In this document: piece by piece, positions 3,812-4,054 of the stretch
How the letters are laid out: every line of letters starts with the position of its first letter
Position numbering within the stretch: position 1 is the stretch's first letter
UHGV virus genome: UHGV-0122840
Direction: 5' to 3' (one strand)
DNA length: 17,970 bases
From: a virus
Translations under genes and position numbers: made by a program
The notes under the pieces: model-generated
The model's input: the letters and a program-made list of their open reading frames with translations, nothing else
The model's database searches: none
What the model was told of the DNA's origin: nothing

Positions 3812-3921
3812 TTTGACCTCCATTTTCTGTAGGCTTCGACGGCCTCACGAAACATCTTTTCATCGCCAATAAAAGCGGCGATAGTGAATTTAGTCTGGAT
3901 AGCCATAAGTGTTTTATCCAT
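3808..3921 (-). CDS. kil: Kil-like host cell-division inhibitor (37 aa, MDKTLMAIQTKFTIAAFIGDEKMFREAVEAYRKWRSK)
   Basis: Starts inside the 3' end of cIII in another frame, as lambda kil does. N-terminal sequence matches my recollection of lambda Kil. Shorter than lambda Kil (about 47 aa), so the C-terminus differs. Confidence 0.5.
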   Translation of the reverse strand: MDKTLMAIQTKFTIAAFIGDEKMFREAVEAYRKWRSK

Positions 3922-4054
3922 TCTTTGGGACTCCTGGCTGATTAAGTATGTCGATAAGGCGTTTCCATCCGTCACGTAATTTACGGGTGATTCGTTCAAG
4001 TAAAGATTCGGAAGGGCAGCCAGCAACAGGCCACCCTGCAATGGCATATTGCAT
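3914..4054 (-). CDS. cIII: CIII (FtsH inhibitor that stabilises CII), 46 aa, truncated at the C-terminus relative to 54-aa lambda CIII
   Basis: Translation MQYAIAGWPVAGCPSESLLERITRKLRDGWKRLIDILNQPGVPKNG matches lambda CIII residues 1-46. AAGGAG Shine-Dalgarno. An in-frame TAA is followed by codons for NTYGYPD and a second stop. Confidence 0.85.
   Translation of the reverse strand: MQYAIAGWPVAGCPSESLLERITRKLRDGWKRLIDILNQPGVPKNG

Follow-up and report, generated by a model that had tools for sequence, protein, structure and literature searches.

A stretch of 17,970 nt from the virus genome UHGV-0122840 (hereafter, the window) carries a lambda-like cIII gene whose reading frame ends after 46 codons, eight codons short of its counterpart in lambda. 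The question raised by this locus is whether the stop codon is a mutation that has truncated a formerly longer protein, or the place where the gene normally ends. An earlier note, made from the letters of the window, took the former view; its observations on the sequence stood, while its framing of the stop as a premature truncation by mutation did not. We put at roughly 85% the probability that this is a natural short allele of cIII, belonging to an HK620-type module, with the core of the protein kept and with a stop that is old and probably ancestral, lambda being the form in which the stop was lost.

Coding frames at the cIII–kil junction

The cIII gene of the window translates as MQYAIAGWPVAGCPSESLLERITRKLRDGWKRLIDILNQPGVPKNG followed by TAA, and the frame continues past this stop through codons for NTYGYPD to a second TAA (Table 1), so that the succession of PGVPKNG, stop, NTYGYPD and stop described in the earlier note was read correctly. 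Alignment with lambda (NC_001416) likewise agreed with the lambda C-terminus and the TCA (Ser47) to TAA substitution that the note had given: a single base differs in the cIII body (GGATAAAAC in the window vs GGATCAAAC in lambda). This base is the middle of cIII codon 47, TCA (Ser) in lambda and TAA in the window, and also the first base of codon 3 of the overlapping kil gene, CAA (Gln) in lambda and AAA (Lys) in the window, a double effect that had been pointed out as well. Lambda continues through NTYGYPD where the window stops; the stretch is translated only in TCA (lambda-type) alleles, and in the window it coincides with kil codons 3–11, read in the +1 frame.

Table 1 Positions of the cIII–kil region features and of cII in the window
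Feature	Position	Strand	Basis
cIII, 46 codons + TAA	4054..3914	minus	translation, Pfam PF02061, RefSeq annotation of identical DNA
NTYGYPD codons + second TAA, cIII frame	3890..3913	minus	translation
Polymorphic base	3915	T on plus, A on coding strand; lambda G/C	alignment and allele counts
AAGGAG, Shine-Dalgarno-like, for cIII	4061..4066	minus	6 nt upstream of ATG; sequence and lambda alignment
kil, 37 codons + stop, HK620/HK629-type short Kil ending RSK	3921..3808	minus	translation, Pfam PF06301
AGGAG, Shine-Dalgarno-like, for kil (putative function)	3931..3935	minus	9 nt upstream of ATG; read from sequence
hkaM-like small ORF, 62 aa from ATG overlapping kil stop as ATGA	3623..3811	minus	ORF list; HK620 and CE10 annotation
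cII, FtsH substrate protected by CIII; intact	8123..8419	plus	Pfam PF05269 Phage_CII, 110 bits, profile 1–90 of 91

The kil gene, translated as MDKTLMAIQTKFTIAAFIGDEKMFREAVEAYRKWRSK, overlaps the cIII stop by 8 nt (ATGGATAA), with the cIII TAA lying within its first three codons (ATG-GAT-AAA), and the same 8-nt overlap is present in HK620, in E. coli CE10 and in Salmonella lineages. The ribosome-binding region of cIII appears to be the same in lambda, with the AAGGAG region identical in the short aligned segment (CACACC ahead of the ATG). The AGGAG of kil lies within cIII codons 40–42 (the conserved QPGVP), and this putative ribosome-binding site may account for part of the protein conservation where the CIII domain ends.

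Family membership of both proteins was judged with Pfam profiles. Kil of the window scored 74.2 bits against PF06301 Lambda_Kil (cut-off 27.6), residues 2–32 aligning to profile positions 1–31 of 31. The published description of Kil as a helix-turn-helix protein comprises helix 1, a G19-D20 turn, helix 2 and a C-terminal RSK or RSSK motif, the motif occurring in nearly all Kil homologues (PMC11762379); the GD turn at residues 19–20 and the terminal RSK are both present in the window. Removal of residues 1–5 leaves lambda Kil active (Naha, Cameron and Margolin 2025, PMC11762379), and HK629 Kil' (residues 6–37, starting at Met6) blocks division efficiently and disrupts Z rings in a ZipA-dependent manner (PMC11762379), which places the Gln3/Lys3 difference in a dispensable segment of the protein. 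The exchange of Lys3 for Gln3 would then be a passenger change in that N-terminal segment; Lys3 is the state in all diverged lineages. Kil of the window, which differs from HK629 Kil at residues 16 and 28, may likewise block Z-ring assembly and division.

Downstream of kil, the hkaM-like ORF marks the HK620-type left-arm module, in which it replaces lambda gam; it had no Pfam match. Upstream of cIII in the leftward operon lies an ORF of 149 aa (4291–4740, minus strand), hydrophobic judging by its sequence and without a match in Pfam or NCBIfam, roughly in the position of the lambda ea10-ral-sieB region or the HK620 hkaP region. A further ORF of 79 aa, in a frame different from that of cIII, begins within cIII and extends into kil (3808–4047 on the minus strand of the window, 2375–2614 in HK629). 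In the GenBank record of HK629 this ORF is named 'Kil protein' and cIII is left without annotation. Records of this style, which omit cIII and give the name Kil to the 79-aa ORF, are probably in error, the real genes being a 46-aa cIII and a 37-aa kil.

What the 46-codon gene retains

CIII of the window scored 106.1 bits against Pfam PF02061 Lambda_CIII, for which the gathering cut-off is 25.7, with residues 2–43 aligning to profile positions 1–42 of 42; the 42 positions of this model correspond only to CIII residues 2–43. An NCBIfam scan of CIII and Kil gave no matches, and the RefSeq names are not traceable to an NCBIfam model. In E. coli CE10, where the DNA is identical, the RefSeq annotation is WP_001198858.1, an intact 'protease FtsH-inhibitory lysogeny factor CIII' and not a pseudogene. 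The setting is that of a cIII locus too, with the gene lying in a leftward early operon, overlapped by kil, in the same order as in HK620 and CE10.

In an alignment of 20 members of the CIII family, conservation was gone after NQPGVP (residue 43), and the tails that follow include KNG-stop, CNG-stop, KNGSNTYGYPD, RHDYCAC and RNDYCY, among others. The 24 residues from 14 to 37, which form an amphipathic helix, are described as essential and sufficient where Kobiler et al. (2007, PMC1838920) cite Kornitzer 1991. Residues 1–46 of the window protein are identical to lambda CIII, this helix included, in keeping with the earlier remark that the FtsH-inhibitory core is retained. The 46-aa protein keeps everything that the CIII family conserves, namely residues 2–43 with the 14–37 helix.

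Besides an intact cII (Table 1), the window encodes an S24/HTH CI-type repressor at 7009–7656 (Pfam), and the circuit served by CIII is therefore present. From the result on residues 14–37 together with the conservation we infer that the 46-aa protein is active; no functional assay of it was found in the literature searched. It would bind FtsH and inhibit it competitively through the 14–37 amphipathic helix, and this inhibition would protect CII and favour lysogeny as in lambda. HK620 is temperate and forms lysogens (PMC4506075). That a phage with the same short CIII is temperate, and that dN/dS for cIII is 0.15 across short-form lineages, lend indirect support to protection of CII by the 46-aa form.

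The 46-aa CIII falls in a protein cluster (90% identity) whose representative is a 122-aa 'DUF2528 family protein' and whose members are 46, 54 and 122 aa long. This mixture seems to be an artefact of clustering such very short proteins, and CIII cluster sizes are unreliable at face value.

Distribution and age of the two alleles

Alleles were counted using 34-mers in which position 7 is the variable base; every 28-nt megablast seed then includes that base. These counts cover only loci with an E. coli-type kil N-terminus. Among 5,426 complete E. coli genomes, the TAA allele was found in 248 places in 220 genomes and the TCA allele in 1,112 places in 946 genomes, that is, in ~18% and ~82% of the E. 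coli-type loci, respectively. Seventy-six phage records carry TAA, including HK620, HK629 and JEP4 (each with a GenBank or RefSeq accession), TL-2011a, 49 Stx2a and 21 Stx1a converting phages, and 134 carry TCA. At the same junction in IMG/VR, the first 120 contigs listed comprised 89 with TCA (C) and 31 with TAA (A), and none with G or T at this base. Exact copies of the 46-aa CIII occur on at least 1,000 contigs, and those of the 37-aa Kil on 999.

These counts rule out a nonsense mutation private to this phage. A one-base sequencing or assembly error, for which the single-base difference is the sole support, has a negligible chance of being the explanation, given that six independent complete E. 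coli genomes are 100% identical to the window over positions 3800–4160 (361 bp) and that hundreds of independent records, produced by different laboratories on different platforms, also have the allele. The resequencing concern attached to the original reading is thus answered by the 220 complete genomes that carry the allele and the six identical ones: the stop is real.

In the IMG/VR sample, the 46-codon frame was open in 29/29 readable TAA cIII genes, and three further TAA loci had no recognisable cIII start. A pseudogene created by nonsense mutation was considered and rejected: the stop is widespread, it sits on the more diverse haplotypes, and constraint upstream of it is not relaxed. Two frameshifted cIII loci were seen in the sample, both on the TCA background and both reading from cIII into the kil frame. 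Proteins of 83 and 91 aa match both PF02061 and PF06301; one of the 91-aa proteins, labelled 'lambda Kil' by NCBI, is present on 131 contigs, including O157:H7 str. G5101.

The earlier note had held that the substitution removed the last eight codons in this phage, and had named as refutation a native cIII that ends at this position in the lineage. Such an end is what we observed: the gene stops here in the HK620-type left arm, in HK620, HK629 and JEP4, in many Stx phages and in diverged Salmonella-type cassettes. The latter (Kil MDKSLMAIQSKFAIAVYLGDK...) carry an identical ATGGATAAA junction, and several diverged CIII lineages, those of Salmonella included, encode proteins of 46 or 48 aa that end in NG. 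With the focal base left free in the search, TAA was found in 34/34 IMG/VR loci of the diverged Salmonella-type background. Within the E. coli-type background, nucleotide diversity (pi) was 0.0395 for TAA (22 haplotypes in 38 sequences) and 0.0099 for TCA (18 in 86), making TAA ~4 times more diverse; one TCA sequence with more than 20 differences from lambda was left out of this comparison. Between the window and the Salmonella locus L145, both of which end in TAA, dN/dS was 0.15 for cIII at a dS of 1.09, and 0.12 for kil at a dS of 1.33. The 46-codon gene with its TAA has been maintained by purifying selection across saturating synonymous divergence. Taken together, the distribution of the allele, the Salmonella-type junction, the diversity of TAA and the dN/dS values argue that the short form is long-standing and selected.

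Which allele came first was judged from the outgroup state and the diversity of each allele, a neighbour-joining (NJ) tree of the 181-nt shared segment being too short and too recombinant for this purpose. We lean towards TAA as the older state, with the TCA of lambda having arisen once, as a stop-loss in a shallow lambda/Stx-phage clade. Under this polarity, a change of TAA to TCA would have given the lambda 54-aa form by adding eight codons through the alternative frame of kil up to the next TAA. Confidence in the direction is moderate, because the tree is unresolving, recombinants occur both ways and the haplotype of the window is lambda-like upstream of the base. In the tree, rooted with Salmonella-type sequences, TCA haplotypes were basal in the E. 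coli-type clade. This basal position is weak evidence, given internal branches of 1–2 substitutions in that clade, a long root branch and recombination in the region. Apparent recombinants in the IMG/VR sample comprised three TAA loci with a long kil and three TCA loci with a short kil, and such recombination or recurrence blurs the history of the alleles.

The same data bear on the alternative that, in this lineage, a nonsense change from TCA to TAA struck a lambda-type cIII and truncated a former 54-aa protein, whether with function kept or lost. It would need just one transversion, the haplotype of the window adjoins TCA haplotypes in the NJ tree, and its cIII body is lambda-like rather than HK620-like at 9/9 upstream sites at which lambda and HK620 differ (between −172 and −2 from the kil ATG). 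We nevertheless regard it as quite improbable: no fewer than 220 complete E. coli genomes and 76 phage records have TAA, on several cIII haplotypes, and TAA is fixed (34/34) in the diverged Salmonella-type lineage, sits on ~4 times the diversity of TCA and closes a gene that remains under purifying selection at saturating dS. Even as a reversion, TAA would restore a common viable state and create no defect. From the focal base onward, the window agrees with HK620 at 10/12 sites varying among the window, lambda and HK620. Its haplotype could therefore be ancestor-like to the TCA clade, or the product of a crossover or reversion (TCA to TAA plus a downstream crossover).

Conservation of the NTYGYPD codons was considered as evidence that the stop is recent and was rejected. 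The codons are kil codons 3–11 in the other frame and track the divergence of kil, Salmonella-type loci reading ITYGYSV* in this frame in step with the kil substitutions; since selection on Kil holds the same 24 nt, their conservation is uninformative.

A scan of GTDB species representatives was dropped as evidence, as it yielded only apparent lambda contamination in unrelated taxa. The lambda-type cIII/kil junction appeared there in 18 unrelated 'species' assemblies (Shewanella canadensis, Pseudomonas spp., Neobacillus, Kitasatospora, Bradyrhizobium, Enterococcus and others), mostly on tiny or ~48.4–48.5 kb contigs at ~1x coverage, and these are almost certainly lambda DNA contamination. The 'Campylobacter phage CJLB-4' (MW057783, 48,361 bp, with ea10/kil/gam) also resembles lambda.

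A different view of the two alleles is that they form a functional polymorphism, the tail or the position of the stop tuning FtsH turnover of CIII or its coupling to kil, and hence the set-points of lysogenisation and filamentation. Both alleles do persist at appreciable frequency (~18% vs 82%), and in the TAA form the cIII stop falls 5 nt after the kil ATG, a geometry that fits termination-reinitiation. No data on turnover or coupling were found, and we consider this view unlikely: kil has its own AGGAG Shine-Dalgarno sequence, the 8-residue tail lies outside the Pfam model and lacks conservation in the CIII family, and the allele is mostly linked to the whole module, so that hitch-hiking may explain how frequent it is. 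On the reading that the lambda 54-aa CIII is derived, with Lys3 of Kil changed to Gln at the same time, there is a similarly small chance that the alleles differ measurably in CIII turnover by FtsH or in cIII–kil coupling, and hence in the set-point of lysogenisation. Speculatively, the stop located 5 nt after the kil ATG might couple translation of kil to that of cIII, and the extra tail of lambda CIII might alter its FtsH-dependent turnover. If CIII stability or kil coupling did depend on the tail or the stop position, the lysis-lysogeny decision would have a natural knob there.

On the preferred reading, a natural short allele with an old stop, the 46-aa cIII should not be annotated as a pseudogene or a truncated mutant. 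If this reading is true, the lambda 54-aa CIII may be an accidental read-through extension into the alternative frame of kil, and the cIII–kil overlap would illustrate a one-base toggle that alters two proteins together.

Relation to known phages

The window is a new lambdoid mosaic. Its modules comprise a left arm of HK620 type, an immunity region (CI/Cro/CII), a toprim-type replication gene at 9550–11430, a nin region and, at about 17367, a holin. None of the complete E. coli genomes searched contains the whole of it (1–17970), the best match covering 69% at 97.9% identity. Positions 2300–4247 are 98.2% identical to the left arm of HK620, with the order abc2-hkaK-hkaL-hkaM-kil-cIII on the plus strand; outside this segment the mosaic differs from that of HK620. 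The cIII of the window belongs to the HK620-type left-arm module, cIII-kil (37 aa)-hkaM, that lambdoid and P22-like phages carry.

The short gene itself is already known as a common natural allele. HK620 cIII (AAK28863.1, GenBank AF335538; Clark et al. 2001) is a 141-nt CDS flagged in 2001 with the comment 'protein shorter than similar proteins due internal stop codon'. What is mildly new is only the probable reversal of polarity, by which lambda would have gained its 54-aa CIII through a stop-loss, the extension being overprinted on kil.

HK620, and identically arranged HK629 and JEP4, encode a 46-aa CIII ending in ...QPGVPKNG-TAA as the window does, and HK620 shares with the window the 8-nt overlap and a 37-aa kil ending in RSK, followed by hkaM, hkaL (ATPase), hkaK and abc2. 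The two differ at CIII residue 36 (Ile in the window, Val in HK620) and at Kil residues 16 and 28 (Ala16 and Val28 in the window, Thr16 and Ile28 in HK620), and in the cIII DNA the window matches lambda where HK620 differs. Lambda CIII (NP_040620.1, 54 aa) occupies the same position in the pL operon. Lambda Kil (NP_040619.1, 47 aa) is nearly identical to Kil of the window over residues 1–32; its residue 3 is Gln, its C-terminus is longer and different (...KKWILILKLRSSKSIH), and the next gene is gam, whereas the window has hkaM. Cassettes of Salmonella and P22-like phages (e.g. L145–L148) share the ATGGATAAA junction, the 8-nt overlap, the 37-aa Kil and an hkaM-like gene downstream, and their CIII is 46 or 48 aa long and ends in CNG. 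Compared with the window, these Salmonella-type proteins are ~80% identical in CIII and ~70% in Kil (MDKSLMAIQSKFAIAVYLGDKIMYREAVEAYREWRLK), at a dS of ~1.1–1.3.
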